DNA of 64,000 nt from Escherichia coli (lineage in GTDB: Bacteria; Pseudomonadota; Gammaproteobacteria; Enterobacterales; Enterobacteriaceae): the NCBI RefSeq assembly GCF_048403405.1, contig NZ_CP183129.1. One strand, given 5' to 3'. How positions within the stretch are numbered: position 1 is the stretch's first letter; each line of letters begins with the position of its first letter. Below, piece after piece: positions 3,521 through 64,000 of this stretch. A program made the position numbers and the translations under genes. Below the pieces are notes generated by a model. That model ran no database searches. It was not told where the DNA came from and saw only the letters and a program-made list of their open reading frames with translations.

Positions 3521-6316
<2,796 letters not shown>

Positions 6317-14535: not shown

Positions 14536-15711
14536 TTACAGCTTGTTGTAAACACGCGCTAAACGGCCGTGGCCTTTGACAGTCACCGGTGATTCGTTGG
14601 CGGCAATAAACGCTGATTCACCCGGTTTAAGCTGTAACTGCTGAGAACCTTTCCACAGCGTTGCATCGCCTTCGACGCAGAACAAAATGGCGGCACTCTG
14701 CTGGCTGATGGTGGTTTCTTTATCACTAAGGTCATGCAGCGAGAAGGCAAAATCATCCACAGGAATCGGGAAGTCCAGTTCTGCACCTTGTTTCACCGGC
14801 TGGGTCAACAACTGGTTAGCCGGTTTGGCTTCGAACTTCACATTGGCAACCAGTTCCGGAATATCAATGTATTTAGGCGTCAGACCCGCACGCAGCACGT
14901 TATCGGAGTTCGCCATCACTTCCAGCGCCACGCCTTGCAGGTAAGCGTGCGGTGTTTCAGCGAACAGGAACATCGCTTCGCCAGGATTCAATTTCACCAC
15001 ATTCAGCAACAGCGGGGAGAACAGACCGCTGTCATCCGGGTAAAATTCAGAAATTAAACGAATTGTTTGCCACGGTTCACCCTGCTGGCTGTCAAGGGCC
15101 GATTTTAAAATCGCCAGCGCGCGGGATTTTTCTTCACCCTGCATATTCAACAGGCTGGCGAACAGTTCGCTTAAACGTTCGGCATCAGGCTGTTGTAAAA
15201 AGTGAGCAATCGCCGGATGTGCACCTGCGACCGGCTGGAGCAGGGAGACAATCTCGGAAAACTCACGAAACGCGTTCATCGCAAGGAAAGGCGTCAGCGC
15301 AAAAACCAGCTCCGGCTTGTGGTTAGGATCTTTATAGTTACGCTCGGCGGCATCCAACGGAATACCTGCGGCATTTTCTTTGGCAAAACCGATTTCAGAA
15401 TTGCGTTTGTTTGGATGAACCTGAATGGAGAGCGGCTGTGCTGCGCATAATACTTTGAACAGGAAAGGCAGTTCGCCAAAGCGTTTGGCAACGGCCTCTC
15501 CGAGCAGAGTCGATTTATCACTCTCAATCACATCACGCAGTGAAACGATATCTCCGGCGGCATTCTGCACTCGTGAACTGCTTTTCGGATGTGCGCCCAT
15601 CCACAGCTCGGCCATCGGCTGGCTGGACGGATTTTCCATACCATAAAGTTCAGTCAACGCCGTTTTGCTGCCCCAGGCATAGTTTTGCACTGAGTTAATG
15701 AGTTTTTGCAT
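14536..15711 (-). CDS. manA: mannose-6-phosphate isomerase
   Basis: Supplied ORF 14536..15789 has a 26-codon extension; recalled 391-aa ManA starts at MQKLINSVQNYAWGSK (cat at 15709..15711). Confidence 0.95.
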   Translation of the reverse strand: MQKLINSVQNYAWGSKTALTELYGMENPSSQPMAELWMGAHPKSSSRVQNAAGDIVSLRDVIESDKSTLLGEAVAKRFGELPFLFKVLCAAQPLSIQVHPNKRNSEIGFAKENAAGIPLDAAERNYKDPNHKPELVFALTPFLAMNAFREFSEIVSLLQPVAGAHPAIAHFLQQPDAERLSELFASLLNMQGEEKSRALAILKSALDSQQGEPWQTIRLISEFYPDDSGLFSPLLLNVVKLNPGEAMFLFAETPHAYLQGVALEVMANSDNVLRAGLTPKYIDIPELVANVKFEAKPANQLLTQPVKQGAELDFPIPVDDFAFSLHDLSDKETTISQQSAAILFCVEGDATLWKGSQQLQLKPGESAFIAANESPVTVKGHGRLARVYNKL

Positions 15712-57546: not shown

Positions 57547-57954
57547 TTATTTTATTGATTTATTTTTACGCGCTTTAAGCATTTCTTCGAAGAGTTTGTT
57601 GAAGTTTTCTACTCTTGCGCGCATTTCAGACAGCAAGGCTTCCTGCTCGGAAGATGGAAGAGCATCGAATAATTCGATCAATTCTTTGTGGTTGGGAGTT
57701 AGCTCTGTTTCCACATGAAGTTCTTGTGCAGGCACTGGTGCCTTGTCTTCGTCACCAAACATTAGCCATGTAGGTGAGCACTTCAGAGCATCCGCTAAAG
57801 CAAACAATCGTTTTCCGACTGGCTGGGTTTCGTCTCTTTCCCATTGTGAAATTGTGACGTGAGCAACTCCAGCGAGGCGCGCAGCTTCTCGTTGTGTTAA
57901 GCGTAATTCTTTTCGTCGCGCCAGAACTCGCTGGCCTAGGGTTCTTGTATCCAT
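57547..57954 (-). CDS. dicA: DicA-like HTH_XRE immunity repressor (cI functional analogue)
   Basis: 135-aa protein with XRE-type HTH (LRLTQREAARLAGVAHVTISQWERDE); similar to, but clearly diverged from, my remembered K-12 DicA; divergent from the Cro-like gene. Confidence 0.85.
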   Translation of the reverse strand: MDTRTLGQRVLARRKELRLTQREAARLAGVAHVTISQWERDETQPVGKRLFALADALKCSPTWLMFGDEDKAPVPAQELHVETELTPNHKELIELFDALPSSEQEALLSEMRARVENFNKLFEEMLKARKNKSIK

Positions 57955-58031: not shown

Positions 58032-58262
58032 TTGATGCTTAAAGTTGACGCAATTACTTTTTTTGGCAGCAAAACAAAGCTTGCCAATGCCGCAGGAGTG
58101 AGACTGGCAAGTGTTGCTGCTTGGGGGATACTGGTTCCTGAAGGTCGCGCGATGCGTCTACAGGAGGCATCTGGCGGGGAGCTTCAGTATGATCCCAAAG
58201 TTTATGACGAATATCGTAAGACGAAGCGGGCGGGGCGGTTGAACAATGAAAATCACTCCTGA
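58032..58262 (+). CDS. dicC: DicC-like Cro-type repressor
   Basis: 76-aa protein; its C-terminal half (EGRAMRLQEASGGELQYDPKVYDEYRKTKRAGRLNNENHS) matches my memory of DicC. Confidence 0.85.
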   Translation: MMLKVDAITFFGSKTKLANAAGVRLASVAAWGILVPEGRAMRLQEASGGELQYDPKVYDEYRKTKRAGRLNNENHS

Positions 58263-58767
58263 ACAGGCTCGTGAGGCTCTGGATGCCTGGATATGTCGAC
58301 CAGGAATGACACAGGAGCAGGCGACGATATTAATCACTGAAGCATTCTGGGCTTTGAAAGAGCGCCCGAACATCGATGTTCAGCGTGTCACATATGAAGG
58401 TGGCGCGGTTGATCAGCGAGCGCTTAGCGTTAATCGAGTGAAGATATTCGAACGCTGGAAGGCTATCGACACCAGGGATAAGCGTGAAAAGTTCACAGCG
58501 CTAGTGCCTGCAATTATGGAGGCTATCCGGATTAGTGATTTCAGGTTGTATCGTGAGATCAGTGATGGAAAAAGTATTACGTACATGATCGCCGGGTTAA
58601 ATAAAGAATATGGCGATGTGGTGGAATCCGGACTGCTTTTTGCAGATCCTGCCGTTGTAGATCGTGAAACTGACGAACTTATAGAAAAAGCAATTGCTTT
58701 CAAGCTTGCGTATCGACAGCAATACCAACAAAAAGCTGGATGGAATTATGAGTCTTCTTTTTGCTGA
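58246..58767 (+). CDS. hypothetical protein in the cII-equivalent position (possibly YdaT-like)
   Basis: 173-aa ORF overlapping the dicC-like 3' end by 17 nt; the YdaT/cII-analogue assignment is by position only. Confidence 0.4.
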   Translation: MKITPEQAREALDAWICRPGMTQEQATILITEAFWALKERPNIDVQRVTYEGGAVDQRALSVNRVKIFERWKAIDTRDKREKFTALVPAIMEAIRISDFRLYREISDGKSITYMIAGLNKEYGDVVESGLLFADPAVVDRETDELIEKAIAFKLAYRQQYQQKAGWNYESSFC

Positions 58768-59713
58768 ACGCCCACTGGTTATAAACACGCAGCTGGCAAT
58801 GAAAATCGGCTTAAACGAAGCCATTGTTTTGCAACAACTGCACTACTGGTTGAGAGATACCAACTCCGGTATGGAATGTGATGGTGTTCGCTGGATTTAT
58901 AACACAACGGAACAATGGCTGGAACAGTTCCCATTCTGGTCAGAGTCAACGTTAAAGCGCGCGTTTGCAAGTCTGAAAACGCTGGGGCTTTTGCGTTGTG
59001 AAAAGCTCAATAAATCAAAGCGCGATATGACCAATTTCTACACGATCAACTATGGGAGCGAGCTTTTAGATGGTGGCAAATTGAACGAATCCATCGGTTC
59101 AAAATGCGCCGCTCCATCAGGTCAAAATGACACGATGGAAGAGGTCAAAATGAAACGCTCCATTGGTTCAAAACGACCCAATGTCATCGGGTCAAAATGG
59201 CCTGATGATCTTACAGAGAATACAACAGAGATTACTACAGAGAATAAAAACACTTTTCGTCCGGAAGCTTCGCAACCGGACCCGCAGACGACTGAACAGG
59301 ATTTTTTAACCCGGAACCCCGACGCGGTTGTGTTTAGTGTGAAAAAACGCCAGTGGGGTAGCAGGGAGGATTTGGCGTGTGCGCAGTGGATTTGGGGGCG
59401 GATCGTGAACCTTTACGAACAGGCTGCCAGCGACGATGGAGAGATCATGCGACCAAAAGAGCCTAACTGGACAGCCTGGGCCAATGACGTGCGCACAATG
59501 CGGATGCTGGATGGCAGAAGCCACAGACAAATTTGCGAAATGTTTGGTCGGGTACAGCGGGATCCATTCTGGGTAAAAAACATCATGAGCCCGTCAAAAC
59601 TCCGCGAAAAATGGGACGAACTGGTCATCCGCCTGGGACGTTCACCTGTACAGCGTTGTGTTAATCATATTTCTGAACCGGATACAGAAATTCCGCCTGG
59701 TTTCAGGGGATAA
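58748..59713 (+). CDS. phage replication initiator / replisome organiser (lambda O-like)
   Basis: N-terminal wHTH-like segment (LAMKIGLNEAIVLQQLHYWL) typical of phage replisome-organiser N-domains; the gene contains an iteron array followed by an AT-rich tract; the protein has the corresponding IGSK peptide repeats. Start codon uncertain (58694 or 58748). Confidence 0.7.
   Translation: MSLLFAERPLVINTQLAMKIGLNEAIVLQQLHYWLRDTNSGMECDGVRWIYNTTEQWLEQFPFWSESTLKRAFASLKTLGLLRCEKLNKSKRDMTNFYTINYGSELLDGGKLNESIGSKCAAPSGQNDTMEEVKMKRSIGSKRPNVIGSKWPDDLTENTTEITTENKNTFRPEASQPDPQTTEQDFLTRNPDAVVFSVKKRQWGSREDLACAQWIWGRIVNLYEQAASDDGEIMRPKEPNWTAWANDVRTMRMLDGRSHRQICEMFGRVQRDPFWVKNIMSPSKLREKWDELVIRLGRSPVQRCVNHISEPDTEIPPGFRG
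59093..59200. repeat. origin-like iteron array inside the O-like gene
   Basis: Five direct repeats of (A/T)TCNGGT(T)CAAAA(T/C)G spaced 21-25 bp apart (about 59096, 59120, 59144, 59165, 59190), followed by an AT-rich stretch (about 59200..59260). Confidence 0.65.
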
Positions 59714-59753
59714 GTGTTGATTTCAGGTCATGAGATAATTTTAAGGGGGACTT

Positions 59754-60155
59754 GTGGCAAAAGTTTTTACACAAGAAGAGCGGGAAAAAATTAAAGGGCA
59801 GGTTGTTGAACTCGTACGCCGGAGTGGGCGTGAGACGTTACGGCAACTGGAAGTCAAGACAGGTGCGACAAGATATCTGATGAGCGTTCTCGCAAGAGAG
59901 CTGGTTGCCAGCGGCGATGTATACAACTCTGGTTACGGGTTATTCCCGTCTGAACAGGCGCGTAAGGACTGGCAAAATGCCCGTAAAAAGCTCTCAAGGG
60001 CAAAGCTGAAGAAACCATCTGCGGTTGATCCGGACCTTATCTGGTCATTACCTGACGGAGAAATACGTCGCTACGACAGGCGTCAGAACATAATCTGCCG
60101 CGAGTGCCGGAAGAGTGAAGTTATGCAGCGCATACTGGCATTTTATCAGGGATAA
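59754..60155 (+). CDS. hypothetical prophage protein
   Basis: 133-aa ORF with GTG start and strong AAGGGGGA RBS; basic, contains a CxxC pair (CRECRK); function unknown. Confidence 0.55.
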   Translation: MAKVFTQEEREKIKGQVVELVRRSGRETLRQLEVKTGATRYLMSVLARELVASGDVYNSGYGLFPSEQARKDWQNARKKLSRAKLKKPSAVDPDLIWSLPDGEIRRYDRRQNIICRECRKSEVMQRILAFYQG

Positions 60156-60688
60156 TGTTAGGTATTTTAGACGTTACTAGATTAAAAAGCATTAGTTCAG
60201 GAGTGAATTGACATTCTCATTTTTCATGGCACAGGGTAGATCTGGCGTGGTTGTCCGCTTTGTGCCAACAGCGGACGTTACTAACGAAACTGTGAGTTAA
60301 AAACGGGAGCTGGTCACCTCCATCCCGCGAAATGGAATTCAAAAATGCCCTCATGTACGGTACTTCTAGTCTGATGTGAGCATTTTCGTGGATTTTTTCG
60401 AGCCACTCCAACGAATGATTACATTCAGTTTCGGGCACTAAAACGTCATAAATCCGCAAGTTGAGGAGTAGCGATCAGCCAATTGGTTAAAAAACAGCTT
60501 TAATTCCCTTTTTCAAGCAGGCTCCTTGTCGCACGTCTGGTGCATCCAATTCATTTCAGTTACCCTGATGCCATACTGGCACGGACTAGCTCTCTTAATT
60601 GGCGCTGGTTTGTTAACCTTGTCCGCTGTCGGGTCTTTGTAAGTTGTAATTCCTAAACTAGCATAATTTTATTATAAGGCCTCTTACT

Positions 60689-61714
60689 ATGCACATTTTA
60701 TCTGTTTCAAAAAAGGAAGTTGGAAGAGCTGGGGATAGATTAGTTTCTCAGTTTGGTACAGGTGAAAAATATAAAGAGGAAGATGTACAAATTCTTCATG
60801 AGTGGAGGATGTTGCATTTATATCCTTTAAGTAAAATACAATTTTATATGGAAAGAGAGGCTATTTCCTTAAACAAAAATGCGTTACTATCCTCTAGAAT
60901 TAAGAGGATGCCTTCCATTGTTACTAAGCTTTCTAGATTTCCTGATATGAAGTTAAATAAGATGCAGGATCTTGGTGGGTGCCGGGCTATTTTAAATAAT
61001 CTGGATCAAGTGTATGATTTAGTTAATAAAATAAAATCATCTAAATTCTCACATGAACTAGTTAGAATGGATGATTACATGATAGACGTGAAAGATTCTG
61101 GTTATAGAAGCTTTCATATGGTCTATTCATTCCAAAATAAAAAATTTCCATCTTTAAATGGGTTGCGCATTGAAATGCAAATAAGAACAGCTATTCAACA
61201 TAGCTGGGCTACAGCAGTTGAAATGGTTGGTTTGTTTCGAAAGGAATCATTGAAATCTGGTTTTGGTGATGCAAGATGGCTTAGGTTTTTTGAATTGGTA
61301 TCAGAGCTTTTTTATAAACTTGAGTATGAAAAAGAACCATCTGGGAGTTATATAAAAATATCAGAAGAATTAAGTTATTTATCCGTCGAGTTGAATGTTT
61401 TCGATATATTAGCTGCTTACAATGCCGTAGTTAGCCATATTGAGGGTAGCAAAAAATATGATAAAGGACTTTGCATAATTGTTGTTGATACCATAAAGCG
61501 GAATATAAATATAAAGAGCTTCGAAAATCACAATCATGCGAAGGCGGCAGAAGCTTATGTCGAGTCTGAAAAATACTGCGCGGAAAATAAAGGCTGTGAA
61601 GTGGCTATGGTTTCTGTTAGTTCAATTAGTGAATTAAAAAATGCATATCCTGCTTACTTTTTAGATACGAAAACTTTTTTAAATTATCTCAGTAGGTATG
61701 TTTTTATAAAATAA
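60689..61714 (+). CDS. RelA/SpoT-domain nucleotide pyrophosphokinase (toxSAS-like; candidate fused CapRel-type toxin-antitoxin defence protein)
   Basis: 341-aa protein with the four synthetase motifs in order: RIKRMPSIVTK, DLGGCRAIL, YRSFHMVY, EMQIRTAIQHSWATAVE. No HD hydrolase, TGS or ACT domains; about 130 C-terminal residues unassigned. The gene is markedly AT-rich compared with its flanks. Confidence 0.8.
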   Translation: MHILSVSKKEVGRAGDRLVSQFGTGEKYKEEDVQILHEWRMLHLYPLSKIQFYMEREAISLNKNALLSSRIKRMPSIVTKLSRFPDMKLNKMQDLGGCRAILNNLDQVYDLVNKIKSSKFSHELVRMDDYMIDVKDSGYRSFHMVYSFQNKKFPSLNGLRIEMQIRTAIQHSWATAVEMVGLFRKESLKSGFGDARWLRFFELVSELFYKLEYEKEPSGSYIKISEELSYLSVELNVFDILAAYNAVVSHIEGSKKYDKGLCIIVVDTIKRNINIKSFENHNHAKAAEAYVESEKYCAENKGCEVAMVSVSSISELKNAYPAYFLDTKTFLNYLSRYVFIK

Positions 61715-62448
61715 AAAATGTTATCTGGAGTGGTCTGAATTCTACTAACTTAGTTTTTTCAGACCGCTTCTGACCACAATGGCCTGTGAGGTTCTGCTGC
61801 TAGTCAACATAAAATAACAAAGCCGGCAGGTGGTGGTTGTTGTAAAGTTATTCAATGACATTCATGGAGGCTTAAGCGAATTATTTGTCCCTGGTCGGTA
61901 TGGTGGCAACAGCTTGTTGCGAGAATTTGGCTAATTTGGACTGACTTCCGCTCCTTGCTCAAAGCGGACTAGAAGGTTAGCTTGTGTCGGACTTTGCGTA
62001 TTAAAAGAAGTGCTGGTGGTGACTAGTGGTTGAGCCCCATTTCCACAGAAAAAATCAGAGAAACTATACCCAATAGTTGTATTGAATCACTGACGAGACA
62101 GCCTCATATTCATCAGGACTGGTGTACGTCCAATACAGGAGGTTGTGGTGCTGGTTCTCAAATGTGCGCTGGCTATTACGGCTGTAATGGCGATTTATTG
62201 TCTTGCTATTGTTCTTATGGATCGCCTTTCTGACTGATTTCATATTGGCGAGGTAAAGGTAGTTAAGTAGAATGGCTGCGGGTGCTTGAGGCTATCTGCC
62301 TCGGGCATGAACACCAAAGGCAGATAGAGAAAAGCCCCAGTTAACATTACGCGTCCTGCAAGACGCTTAACATTAATCTGAGGCCAATTTCATGCTAGAC
62401 ACATGTAGGTTAGCCTCTTACGTGCCGGAAGGCAAGGAGAAGCAGGCT

Positions 62449-62604
62449 ATGAAGCAGCAAAAGGCGATGTTAATCGCCCTGATCGTCATCTGTTTAACCG
62501 TCATAGTGACGGCACTGGTAACGAGGAAAGACCTCTGCGAGGTACGAATCCGAACCGGCCAGACGGAGGTCGCTGTCTTCACAGCTTACGAACCTGAGGA
62601 GTAA
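62449..62604 (+). CDS. hokD: Hok/Gef-family membrane toxin
   Basis: 51-aa protein MKQQKAMLIALIVICLTVIVTALVTRKDLCEVRIRTGQTEVAVFTAYEPEE, matching my memory of HokD; AAGGAGA RBS; upstream fold-back elements typical of hok mRNAs. No relB/relE ORFs are present upstream. Confidence 0.9.
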   Translation: MKQQKAMLIALIVICLTVIVTALVTRKDLCEVRIRTGQTEVAVFTAYEPEE

Positions 62605-62820
62605 GAGACCCGGCGAGGGAGAAATCCCTCGCCACCTCTGATGTGGCAGGCATCCTCAACGCACCCGCACTTAACCCGCTTCGGCGGGTTTTTGTTTTTA
62701 TTTTCAACGCGTTTGAAGTTCTGGACGGTGCCGGAATAGAATCAAAAATACTTAAGTAGCGCGCAGGGATAAGAGGGATGGTCCCTTAAAGGGGAGAGCT
62801 AATTATCCGGAAGAATTCTG

Positions 62821-63072
62821 ATGATGAACATCGAAGAACTGCGTAAAATTTTTTGTGAAGATGGCCTCTATGCTGTGTGCGTTGAAAATGGAAATCTTGT
62901 TAGTCATTACCGCATTATGTGTTTGCGAAAGAATGGGGCTGCGTTAATTAATTTTGTGGATGGTCGAGTGACAGACGGATTTATCTTGCGCGAAGGTGAG
63001 TTTGTCACTTCATTACAGGCACTGAAAGAGATCGGAATAAAAGCAGGCTTTTCAGCTTTTGCAGAAGAATAA
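62821..63072 (+). CDS. rem: Qin prophage protein Rem
   Basis: 83-aa protein MMNIEELRKIFCEDGLYAVCVENG..., matching my memory of K-12 Rem; downstream of hokD as in K-12. Confidence 0.8.
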   Translation: MMNIEELRKIFCEDGLYAVCVENGNLVSHYRIMCLRKNGAALINFVDGRVTDGFILREGEFVTSLQALKEIGIKAGFSAFAEE

Positions 63073-63138
63073 ACTCATCTACAATCTTGCGCGGGGCTGA
63101 ACTCCCGCTGAGTAACACCGTGCCACCGGAGAAAACCG

Positions 63139-63417
63139 ATGGCACGCAACGTAAAATATTACAATTCTGATAATTCGCCCGTTCTTGCCTGCACGCACGG
63201 GCGGTATTCTCACGCATTCAAGTCTGAATGGTTCCAGCACCCTCCATGCACTGCAGAACAGGCCGAATGGCTGATTCATTCTTACCGCAGGCGCGGGTTC
63301 GAGGTTAAGAAAGCTCTCAGTCTCGACTATCGGCACTGGATAATCTCTGTCAGGCTGCCTTATTCCGAACGCCCACCACGTGCGTCCCGCACTTTCCAGC
63401 AACGGATCTGGAGGTAA
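63139..63417 (+). CDS. hypothetical prophage protein
   Basis: 92-aa ORF whose stop immediately precedes, with a GGAGG RBS embedded for, the following gene. Confidence 0.5.
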   Translation: MARNVKYYNSDNSPVLACTHGRYSHAFKSEWFQHPPCTAEQAEWLIHSYRRRGFEVKKALSLDYRHWIISVRLPYSERPPRASRTFQQRIWR

Positions 63418-63418
63418 C

Positions 63419-64000
63419 GTGCGGGTATTACTTAGACCTGTTCTGGTGCCTGAGCTTGGGCTGGTGGTCCTTAAGCCGGGCCGTGAATCCATACAGATAT
63501 TTCATAATCCTCGAGTGCTGGTGGAACCGGAACCAAAAAGCATGCGTAATCTGCCATCCGGAGTCGTTCCTGCCGTTCGCCAGCCGCTGGCGGAAGACAA
63601 AACATTGCTGCCGTTTTTTAGTAACGAACGGGTGATTCGTGCTGCTGGCGGCGTTGGCGCATTGTCTGACTGGCTATTACGTCATGTTACATCCTGCCAG
63701 TGGCCTAATGGCGATTACCATCACACTGAAACAGTCATTCACCGTTATGGTACCGGCGCAATGGTGTTGTGCTGGCACTGCGACAACCAACTGCGTGACC
63801 AGACATCGGAATCACTGGAGCTGCTTGCTCAACAAAATCTGACAGCATGGGTGATTGACGTCATCCGTCACGCAATAAGCGGTACGCAGGAGCGGGAATT
63901 ATCTTTGGCTGAATTATCCTGGTGGGCGGTCTGCAATCAGGTGGTGGATGCACTACCTGAGGCTGTATCGCGTCGTTCGCTGGGATTACCAGCGGAAAAA
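63419..64000 (+). CDS. YdfU-like prophage protein (5' part only; runs off the window)
   Basis: Hand-translated from a GTG at 63419 with GGAGG RBS: VRVLLRPVLVPELGLVVLKPGRESIQIF..., open to the window end (194 codons). Absent from the ORF track because it has no in-window stop. Confidence 0.6.
   Translation, partial: MRVLLRPVLVPELGLVVLKPGRESIQIFHNPRVLVEPEPKSMRNLPSGVVPAVRQPLAEDKTLLPFFSNERVIRAAGGVGALSDWLLRHVTSCQWPNGDYHHTETVIHRYGTGAMVLCWHCDNQLRDQTSESLELLAQQNLTAWVIDVIRHAISGTQERELSLAELSWWAVCNQVVDALPEAVSRRSLGLPAEK

Follow-up and report, generated by a model that had tools for sequence, protein, structure and literature searches.

The 64,000-nt stretch of Escherichia coli DNA analysed here (contig NZ_CP183129.1), called the window at its full length, ends on its right in a Qin-type lambdoid prophage, where the block 60156-62448, between a ren-like gene and the toxin gene hokD, carries a single long open reading frame (ORF) resembling the phage-defence protein CapRelSJ46. 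The original prediction, made from this DNA alone, had described the block as variable cargo that replaces a relBE-type module next to an orphan hok toxin, in what looked like a toxin/defence exchange hotspot. The locus is probably best explained as an exchangeable slot, bounded by two palindromic sites (L and R), that holds a CapRel-family defence gene beside an independent and complete hok/mok/sok module. The CapRel defence family and prophage hotspots are known, whereas the bracketing of the variable core by L and R and the 200-aa recombinase associated with these sites are new. The principal features of the slot are:

59754-60155, plus strand: ren-like gene (DUF977 in RefSeq; PHROG 142 'Ren-like exclusion protein', E 6.5e-45), the conserved flank to the left of the slot
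60253-60276, plus strand: L site, left cassette boundary, a 24-bp palindrome (GTCCGCTTTGTGCCAACAGCGGAC)
60277-61945, plus strand: variable cargo cassette with one gene
60689-61714, plus strand: putative CapRel-type fused toxSAS toxin-antitoxin gene, 341 aa (PADLOC PDC-S33; profile, structure and residue evidence)
61946-61969, plus strand: R site (TTCCGCTCCTTGCTCAAAGCGGAC), right cassette boundary, of the same type as L but inverted
62821-63072, plus strand: rem, conserved right flank (ORF list, RefSeq and alignment with K-12)

The block had been called mostly AT-rich, which is right for about 60600-61950, with a guanine-cytosine (GC) content of 0.31-0.38, but not for its outer parts (0.43-0.49). 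By feature, GC content is 0.326 in the RelA_SpoT ORF, 0.365 in the cassette, 0.48-0.50 in the flanks and 0.492 in the whole window. The block had also been thought to contain only the RelA/SpoT gene plus non-coding sequence. The 341-aa gene is indeed its sole long ORF, but the block also holds a conserved 29-aa ORF and a candidate hok promoter, and the hok mRNA leader, with the mok start and the Sok target, makes up its final ~170 nt.

A distant CapRel-family gene in the cassette

The 341-aa protein contains a Pfam RelA_SpoT domain (residues 69-175) and matches the PDC-S33 profile (PDLC04999) over nearly its full length (E 5.3e-119; protein residues 4-338 against profile positions 6-342 of 349). 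In a phmmer comparison, residues 6-338 align to residues 15-370 of CapRelSJ46 (PDB 7ZTB/9ERV; E 2.6e-34), with 28.5% identity over 98% of the length. An AlphaFold2 model of the protein (pLDDT 88.9, pTM 0.86) has both CapRelSJ46 entries (9ERV and 7ZTB) as its best PDB matches in Foldseek, over ~350 columns and with a TM score of 0.69; RelP and RelQ come next and match the N-terminal half alone. The domain order of a fused toxSAS, an N-terminal toxSYNTH (RelA/SpoT) domain followed by an antitoxin-like pseudo-ZFD with anchors, is thereby matched in one ORF. The hallmarks of CapRel are the ATP-coordinating arginines R79 and R116, the G-loop tyrosine Y155 and a C-terminal YXXY motif for autoinhibition, which reads YPNY in the SJ46 protein (Zhang et al., 2022, PMC9712102). 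R70, R99 and G138-Y139 of the window protein align with R79, R116 and Y155 and are invariant in 40 homologues, while Y320-P-A-Y323 aligns with YPNY, Y320 being kept in 97% and Y323 in 87% of these homologues. Mean identity across the same set is 0.58 in the catalytic core versus 0.33 in the C-terminal beta-sheet region, and a core more conserved than the C-terminal domain has also been described for CapRel (PMC9712102).

The cassette contains no further same-strand ORF of at least 60 aa, and the neighbours of the CapRel-like gene differ in every context examined, with no partner ORF travelling along. The Serratia homologue adjoins dCTP-deaminase-like and radical-SAM genes, that of Pectobacterium AbiEii and an integrase, that of Klebsiella DndB, HsdR and an integrase, and that of Enterobacter HigBA, while the Citrobacter homologue lies in a chromosomal islet. 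Because of its domain, full-length match, key residues, predicted fold and lack of a partner ORF, the 341-aa gene is classified from its sequence as a distant member of the CapRel family. Both it and CapRelSJ46, which is encoded by Salmonella phage SJ46 and senses a phage capsid protein, are single polypeptides with the same domain order and fold, are prophage-encoded with no separate antitoxin gene, and have a C-terminus more variable than the catalytic core. They differ in identity, in length (~373 aa for CapRelSJ46 vs 341 aa) and in phage type and genomic slot. The PDC-S33 class, for its part, belongs to a set of 145 untested candidates recognised through 'guilt-by-embedding' in BREX, DISARM or restriction-modification loci (Payne et al., 2024 preprint, 10.1101/2024.01.29.577857); the window gene matches its hidden Markov model near full length but occupies a lambdoid prophage slot, unlike the BREX, DISARM and type I restriction-modification loci of the class. 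No literature on PDC-S33 or on the exact protein (WP_000547812) was found within the library searched.

By analogy with CapRelSJ46, the protein is most likely an autoinhibited tRNA pyrophosphokinase that acts by abortive infection. It would join an N-terminal toxic nucleotide pyrophosphokinase of the RelA/SpoT type to a C-terminal autoinhibitory, antitoxin-like domain, and would be made in the lysogen in a closed and inactive form. A protein of an infecting phage would then bind the variable C-terminal domain and free the active site, upon which the enzyme would pyrophosphorylate tRNA 3' ends, translation would stop and the infection would abort, to the benefit of the lysogen population and the resident prophage. 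Several points weigh against this assignment: the only characterised CapRel shares just the 28.5% identity given above, neither the substrate (tRNA or ATP/(pp)pApp) nor the trigger is readable from sequence, PDC-S33 is a candidate class without experimental test (10.1101/2024.01.29.577857), and no sigma-70 promoter upstream of the gene passed a consensus scan.

It is unlikely that the gene instead encodes a small alarmone synthetase or a (pp)pApp-producing toxin of the FaRel/Tas1 kind rather than a tRNA-pyrophosphorylating defence protein. Its catalytic domain does match small alarmone synthetases of the RelQ/RelP/YjbM type (E ~1e-10 to 1e-15), and one report states that toxSAS substrate choice is not predictable from sequence (PMC11782079). 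Those matches cover the catalytic core only, however, whereas a full-length match that includes the C-terminal domain and the YXXY motif is found with CapRelSJ46 only; the gene is moreover low-GC mobile cargo in defence contexts, and it scores 57.6 bits against the NCBIfam housekeeping synthetase model, far under the cut-off of 320. That the cassette is decaying, non-functional DNA is barely conceivable, although the block copy of strain GPEC1258 is interrupted by IS903B and strains DAX4 and MB53 hold cassette remnants comprising just its final 380 or 68 nt. Against decay, 40 genomes carry the ORF intact and at 99.8-100% identity, the exact protein occurs on at least 1000 contigs, and the family is conserved with invariant catalytic residues. 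As a distant and naturally prophage-borne branch of CapRel, the protein could be of use in studies of trigger specificity.

A 65%-identical E. coli paralogue lies on the opposite strand in the Q-holin moron slot of another lambdoid prophage (L020-L023, 6001-7017), and no L/R sites were found near it.

A variable slot behind the ren-like gene

A comparison of gene content across Qin-like prophages had been set beforehand as the test of the hotspot idea, and it found that the block is not invariant. All 5426 complete E. coli genomes were queried with window positions 58246-64000, the ranked matches were sampled evenly, and 16 genomic slot versions plus two isolated phages were fetched for comparison. 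The DUF977 gene is kept in all loci compared and the flanks are 88-99% identical, yet the interval from DUF977 to hokD is unrelated among genomes and isolated phages and holds at least 15 unrelated cargo types. The whole block of the window is found, 99.8-100% identical and in one copy each, in 40 of the 5426 genomes, many of them from avian isolates, and the cassette itself is specific to 40-43 of them.

The other cargos comprise a DUF4209 protein (PADLOC PDC-S39), NUDIX plus HAD hydrolases (PDC-S07-like), a 798-aa AAA ATPase (PDC-S06), a SMEK-domain protein (SMEK/Aga-like N-terminus) with a methyltransferase, SIR2, QueH with Kiwa KwaA/KwaB, a Sll1717-type P-loop ATPase, DUF5677, an FRG-domain protein (PDC-S15), DUF7167 with small ORFs, an alpha/beta hydrolase, a KilA-N/BstA-like protein, ParDE and several hypothetical proteins. 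They are 1.2-3.0 kb long with a GC content of 0.32-0.46 versus 0.48-0.50 in the flanks, and about 10 of the 20 slot cargo proteins tested match PADLOC models or defence domains, a raw count without a background rate. The same layout is found in mEp460_ev081, HannyBb, PhiR42_1, Tritos and Evi, and the slot is therefore present in isolated phages too. The block is thus supported as an accessory-gene slot behind the ren-like gene of Qin/mEp460-type lambdoid phages, and its description as a toxin/defence exchange hotspot is borne out. The slot (ren-like gene, L, cargo, R, hok/sok) is compact and recognisable and belongs to a very common class of E. coli prophage. DUF5677, the Sll1717-type ATPase, the alpha/beta hydrolase and several of the 'hypothetical' proteins are candidate anti-phage genes.

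The boundaries of the exchanged segment are narrower than the block. In pairwise blastn of the window against each locus, homology on the left breaks off at 60157-60167 or, in 9 loci with unrelated cargos, at 60267-60285; on the right it resumes at 61944-61961 in 7 loci with unrelated cargos and otherwise at 62068-62268. The alignments place a 24-bp palindrome at each main junction, and because the junctions cluster at these two sites, L and R, the variable core is taken to be 60277-61945 rather than 60156-62448. L and R are the top inverted-repeat pair of the region and the only two matches to TCCGC-N10-14-GCGGA in the 64 kb, against an expected 0.37. Strain A20 has the sole near-empty slot found, with 229 nt between retained L and R sites. 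Strain K207-3, considered as a second empty slot, proved to carry a deletion of 60050-62125 that truncates the ren-like gene.

The slot of Ec-U4-19 contains, between QueH and Kiwa, a fragment like window positions 62215-62308, that is, the end of the small ORF and the hok promoter (L010 2878-2971), which suggests that this two-cargo slot was assembled by successive recombination events.

Variable loci of P2-like phages (the Z/fun 'TO region' and old/tin) and P4 hotspots have reportedly been described by Nilsson (2004), Odegrip (2006), Rousset (2022) and Vassallo (2022). They resemble the slot of the window in having a conserved backbone and a short slot with many alternative defence genes, and in P2 the fun(Z) gene lies between the same L/R sites; the window slot differs from them in belonging to a lambdoid phage and in lying between a ren-like gene and hok/sok.

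The L and R sites

The L consensus, GTCCGCTnTGTGCCAgnAGCGGAC, and the reverse complement of the R consensus, GTCcGCTnTGAGCGAgaAGCGGAC, differ in the central 4 nt. The combined consensus is GTCCGCTnTG-NGCN-AgnAGCGGAC, with TGCC at the centre of L and AGCG at that of reverse-complemented R; because the two are equal except at the centre, L and R are regarded as a single kind of site that occurs in two opposite orientations. The pair also encloses other slot cargos, flxA of K-12 and fun(Z) of phage P2, where L lies at 15335-15358, a degenerate R lies at ~17440 upstream of pF, and fun(Z) is in between (L280 1836-1859 and ~3940-3965). The bracketing of this P2 exclusion gene links the lambdoid slot to the 'TO' variable region of P2.

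The sites also delimit cassettes outside the Qin-like context. On Citrobacter chromosomes the cassette recurs at 96% identity (homology from 60253 to 61943), flanked by an efflux operon on one side and a TonB receptor on the other, with no Qin-like surroundings; the left arm of its L differs (GTCCCCATC), and the breakpoint is therefore inside the site. One Citrobacter strain carries a second cassette (DUF4145) between the CapRel-like cassette and an R site. In Enterobacter, an 87%-identical cassette with homology from 60253 is preceded by another L-bounded cassette. A breakpoint of homology inside a site is also seen in strains CB6886 and A20. The exact L pattern has at least 120 matches in IMG/VR and at least 120 in a collection with one genome per species; the matches listed for the latter include many Enterobacterales, but also Hyphomicrobiales, Nitrosospira, Rhodospirillum, an Acidobacteria metagenome-assembled genome and others. 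Exact matches at 21 of the 24 nt are found in Enterobacterales, Alpha- and Betaproteobacteria and Acidobacteria, and in the non-enterobacterial taxa a second GTCCGC...GCGGAC palindrome often lies ~18-20 nt upstream.

Site statistics were gathered with relaxed patterns on 80 viral contigs. L occurred 122 times in the forward and 18 times in the reverse orientation, and R 95 and 24 times, where chance would give ~5 for L and ~17 for R. Successive elements tend to alternate (LR 70, RL 47, RR 11, LL 9), L-to-R distances span 0.36-4.7 kb, and 26 of the 47 R-to-L gaps measure 12-19 nt, mostly exactly 18, which yields a 66-nt R-18-L doublet. The 71 cassettes so delimited fall into 45 sequence families, are mostly low in GC and carry genes in either orientation. 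PADLOC matches in 10 of 20 cassette representative proteins, again a raw count with no background rate, comprise PD-T7-1 (twice), ThsB/TIR, a SIR2/ThsA-like domain, a protease effector, NsnA, a retron-type reverse transcriptase and an HNH effector. A ren-like gene accompanies the sites in only 22 of the 80 contigs; many of the 80 carry genes for tail sheath, tube and tape measure and are P2-like. The doublet is present in 1838 of the 5426 E. coli genomes, at 1-5 places each and always between genes.

Several known kinds of element were considered for L and R. A high-copy repeat of the REP/BIME kind is ruled out for the doublet in E. coli by its low copy number of 1-5 per genome, and intrinsic terminators were rejected since no T-run follows L or R. 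Rfam returned no match for L, R or the doublet. Integron attC sites measure 57-141 bp, have conserved AAC/GTT triplets and are served by an IntI integrase with attI. The L/R sites are 24 bp long, show no consistent AAC/GTT flanks when the enterobacterial copies are inspected by eye, and have no IntI-type integrase beside any array examined, where the only recombinase found was a 200-aa Xer-like protein. The arrays resemble the pdif modules of Acinetobacter plasmids and integron cassettes in their short tandem modules, alternating palindromic sites and associated tyrosine recombinase. They are unlike both in that the sites match neither dif nor attC in sequence, that the recombinase is absent from most loci, and that recombination at the sites is putative.

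A candidate recombinase and the mode of cassette exchange

The recombinase in question (WP_001305361-like) is a 200-aa tyrosine recombinase with a PF00589 domain and weak Xer-type NCBIfam matches only. It is 93-97% identical among E. coli, Enterobacter and Rahnella and is present in 863 of the 5426 E. coli genomes; examples lie at L277 3339-3941 and L032 6194-6796, and also in L046, L048, L057, L087, L114, L216, L198 and L267. In all eight of the close copies compared, an R-type site lies 63 nt upstream of the start and an L-type half-site (…CCCTGTGCCAGGAGCGGAC) directly follows the stop; because of this R upstream and L half-site downstream, the gene can be said to stand where the doublet has its 18-nt spacer. 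Homologues of 55-60% identity (in Amphritea and another genome) are likewise framed by GTCCGC...GCGGAC palindromes.

L and R may accordingly be the recombination sites of a previously uncharacterised cassette system whose cassettes a mobile 200-aa Xer-like recombinase could exchange or invert, a reading put forward tentatively. On the preferred explanation of the slot, whatever stands between L and R probably passes among phages and chromosomes as a unit of 0.4-5 kb, usually with one gene. If L and R are recombinase targets, the system would shuttle single-gene anti-phage cassettes (CapRel-like, PD-T7-1, TIR/ThsB, retron reverse transcriptase, Kiwa, fun(Z) and others) among lambdoid phages, P2-like phages and chromosomal islets. 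This would account for the movement of single defence genes among chromosomes and phage families that are not related, and the sites would provide a sequence tag for cassette mining. The idea may have partial prior art: the 2004 paper of Nilsson et al. (cited in PMC9122126) is said, by its title, to propose site-specific recombination for the variable region of P2, and the notion of cassette sites was probably foreshadowed there for P2-like phages.

Several observations count against recombination sites. There is no recombinase gene in the 64-kb window, so that exchange could be ordinary homologous recombination in the conserved flanks, and of 200 loci that contain L, just 15 have the 200-aa recombinase. 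Chance matches to the relaxed site patterns are appreciably frequent. Compensatory double changes in the L/R stems show no excess over a shuffled-partner control, a result more in keeping with a double-stranded protein site than with an RNA hairpin, though not a decisive one.

On the competing account, the slot varies through ordinary homologous recombination between mosaic lambdoid phages, and L and R are passive hairpins of morons with an insulating or terminator-like role. This is a genuine possibility, if not the expected one. Besides the scarcity of the recombinase, it draws on the loci whose junctions lie elsewhere (60157-60167 and 62068-62268) and on the textbook fact that lambdoid phages encode efficient short-homology recombinases. 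It sits less well with near-identical sites across Enterobacterales, Alpha-/Betaproteobacteria and Acidobacteria, with the fixed 18-nt R-L doublet and strict alternation, with the lack of a T-run at either element and the cargo lying in either orientation between them, with the breakpoints inside a site in Citrobacter, CB6886 and A20, and with the R and L-type sites that always frame the recombinase gene itself.

A hok/mok/sok module complete by homology

The hokD gene had been regarded as an orphan for want of a relBE partner. Hok belongs, however, to the type I toxins and is paired not with relBE but with an antisense RNA, and the following elements surround the gene:

62245-62273, plus strand: candidate hok promoter, TTGGCG-17-TAGAAT (consensus scan; aligns with the K-12 hokC promoter region)
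62280-62696, plus strand: predicted full-length hok mRNA with 5' tac, mok, hok, 3' fbi and terminator (Rfam, minimum free energy fold)
62327-62399, minus strand: candidate Sok antisense RNA (positional homology with K-12 sokC)
62392-62604, plus strand: 70-aa mok-like ORF that extends hok in frame, as mokC does (ORF list, alignment with K-12 mokC)
62436-62450, plus strand: 15-bp target of relBE insertion (GGAGAAGCAGGCTAT), uninterrupted in the window
62449-62604, plus strand: hokD, 51 aa (RefSeq name of the identical protein; 99% identical to K-12 hokD)
62673-62690, plus strand: hok terminator

The promoter candidate ends 7 nt ahead of 62280, the predicted transcript start. The Rfam family sok (RF01794), which models the sense-strand hok leader, matches 62280-62454 over the full model length with 117 bits versus a gathering score of 59. 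In both the minimum free energy and the centroid fold of the 417-nt transcript (-176 kcal/mol, z -7.8), 62280-62291 pairs with 62654-62666, as expected of tac/fbi closure. The encoded HokD matches the NCBIfam Hok family with E 9e-13 and 47.8 bits, under the curated cut-off of 73. The locus aligns with K-12 hokC/mokC/sokC through the promoter, the transcript start (GGGTGCTTGAGG), the mok start (62392) and hok. The candidate Sok RNA is predicted to fold with a single-stranded 5' end, a long hairpin and a U-rich tail (-30.6 kcal/mol, z -4.3), and its putative promoter, TTGCCT-17-TAACCT at 62434-62406 on the minus strand, was read from the sequence and missed by the consensus scan.

The module thus corresponds to hok/sok of R1 and to K-12 hokC/mokC/sokC in promoter, tac-fbi closure, in-frame mok, Hok ORF and antisense region, and differs from them in an 18-nt palindromic insertion and in its prophage site beside a cargo slot. 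Because this regulatory region is complete, hokD is not an orphan: as judged from these homologies, it forms a full type I module of the hok/mok/sok kind that is independent of the cargo and has a putative Sok promoter, while the K-12 copy is truncated and keeps just the final 14 nt of the hok leader. The integration of relBE into an ancestral 70-codon hokD/mok frame, and the loss of the leader from K-12 hokD, have been published (PMC6379469). Within the library searched, no publication was found that joins hokD with hotspot, defence and prophage.

The 18-nt insertion (ACGCGTCCTGCAAGACGC) lies at 62335-62352 of the hok leader and lengthens the predicted Sok terminator hairpin. Rfam matches to isrK, rsmX and ceN48 at 62293-62694 were set aside as they stay under the gathering thresholds and coincide in part with the leader of hok or with its terminator.

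The relBE segment as a separate insertion

In K-12 MG1655 the order of Qin genes is ydfX/ydfW-flxA-ydfV-relB-relE-hokD-rem, so that flxA-ydfV-relB-relE had been correctly named, and the coordinates are right as well. Similarity between the window and K-12 ends at 58525 and restarts at 62435, 14 nt before the hokD ATG. As also foreseen, relB, relE, flxA and ydfV are absent from the window, where blastn and tblastn over the 64 kb found no DNA or protein similarity to them.

Both segments fill the same interval in this alignment, which is what had suggested an allelic replacement of relBE-flxA-ydfV by the cargo block that left hokD without a partner. Such a replacement is highly improbable, given that three loci carry relBE and slot cargo together. 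In KSC1031, Ec-U4-19 and LR-64-1 the slot holds SIR2, QueH plus Kiwa, and a methyltransferase remnant, and the relBE segment follows downstream, in an insert of 3.27-3.30 kb (L009 3870-7169, L010 5133-8405, L012 3975-7274). The hok leader is intact in these genomes up to 62450 and is followed by a truncated ISEsa1/ISNCY transposase, by ydfW-flxA-ydfV-relB-relE, and then by the leader again from 62436. The insert begins with TGTTAACACC and ends with GCGTTGACA (TGT...ACA), with 18 of 25 positions matching in the terminal inverted repeats, and in all three independent genomes 15 bp of the hok leader (GGAGAAGCAGGCTAT) are directly duplicated on either side of it, 14 nt before hokD. Such coexistence refutes replacement, and the putatively antisense-controlled leader of hokD in the window and the published relBE insertion into hokD (PMC6379469) tell against it as well.

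Members of the IS1202 family have TGT...ACA ends, imperfect terminal inverted repeats and a target duplication that is long in one subgroup, though for ISEsa1 itself no target duplication is reported (PMC10132070). From its ends and duplication, the ydfW-flxA-ydfV-relBE segment is assigned as a separate IS1202-family insertion, and because of the IS1202-type ends, the truncated transposase and the 15-bp target duplication, relBE seems to have travelled as a passenger in a transposon that has since decayed. The K-12 arrangement therefore combines this insertion with a deletion from ydfX to the insertion sequence remnant. Contrary to its textbook-like appearance, the relBE-hokD pair of K-12 is a derived state produced by the IS1202-type insertion, and loci with an intact hokD have normal hok/sok control.

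Within the relBE insert, K-12 flxA is bracketed by L and R sites (L001 5982-6005 and 6973-6996). The L site lies within the annotated ydfV ORF, which casts doubt on ydfV as a real gene.

Neighbouring genes and small ORFs

The flanks had been described as Qin-like, with replication genes on the left and hokD and rem on the right, and annotation and profiles agree. The remaining neighbours are:

57547-57954, minus strand: dicA (family assignment, RefSeq annotation)
58032-58262: dicC (family assignment, RefSeq annotation)
between dicC and the DUF977 gene: a YdaT-like gene, then an O-like replication gene
further right of rem: a DUF968/ydfU gene
62148-62237, plus strand: hydrophobic small ORF, 29 aa, unannotated in the window (Shine-Dalgarno AGGAGG at 62137-62142; product MLVLKCALAITAVMAIYCLAIVLMDRLSD)

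A minus-strand ORF of 80 aa (60217-60459) has no family match among the PADLOC and PHROG profiles and is treated as spurious because it straddles the L site.

The 29-aa ORF has no match among PHROGs and appears as a 'hypothetical protein' in a few records. It has a strong Shine-Dalgarno sequence, lies directly upstream of the hok promoter and is intact in all 11 loci that retain the region, including a version that is only ~60% identical; it could encode a small membrane protein or a toxin-like peptide.

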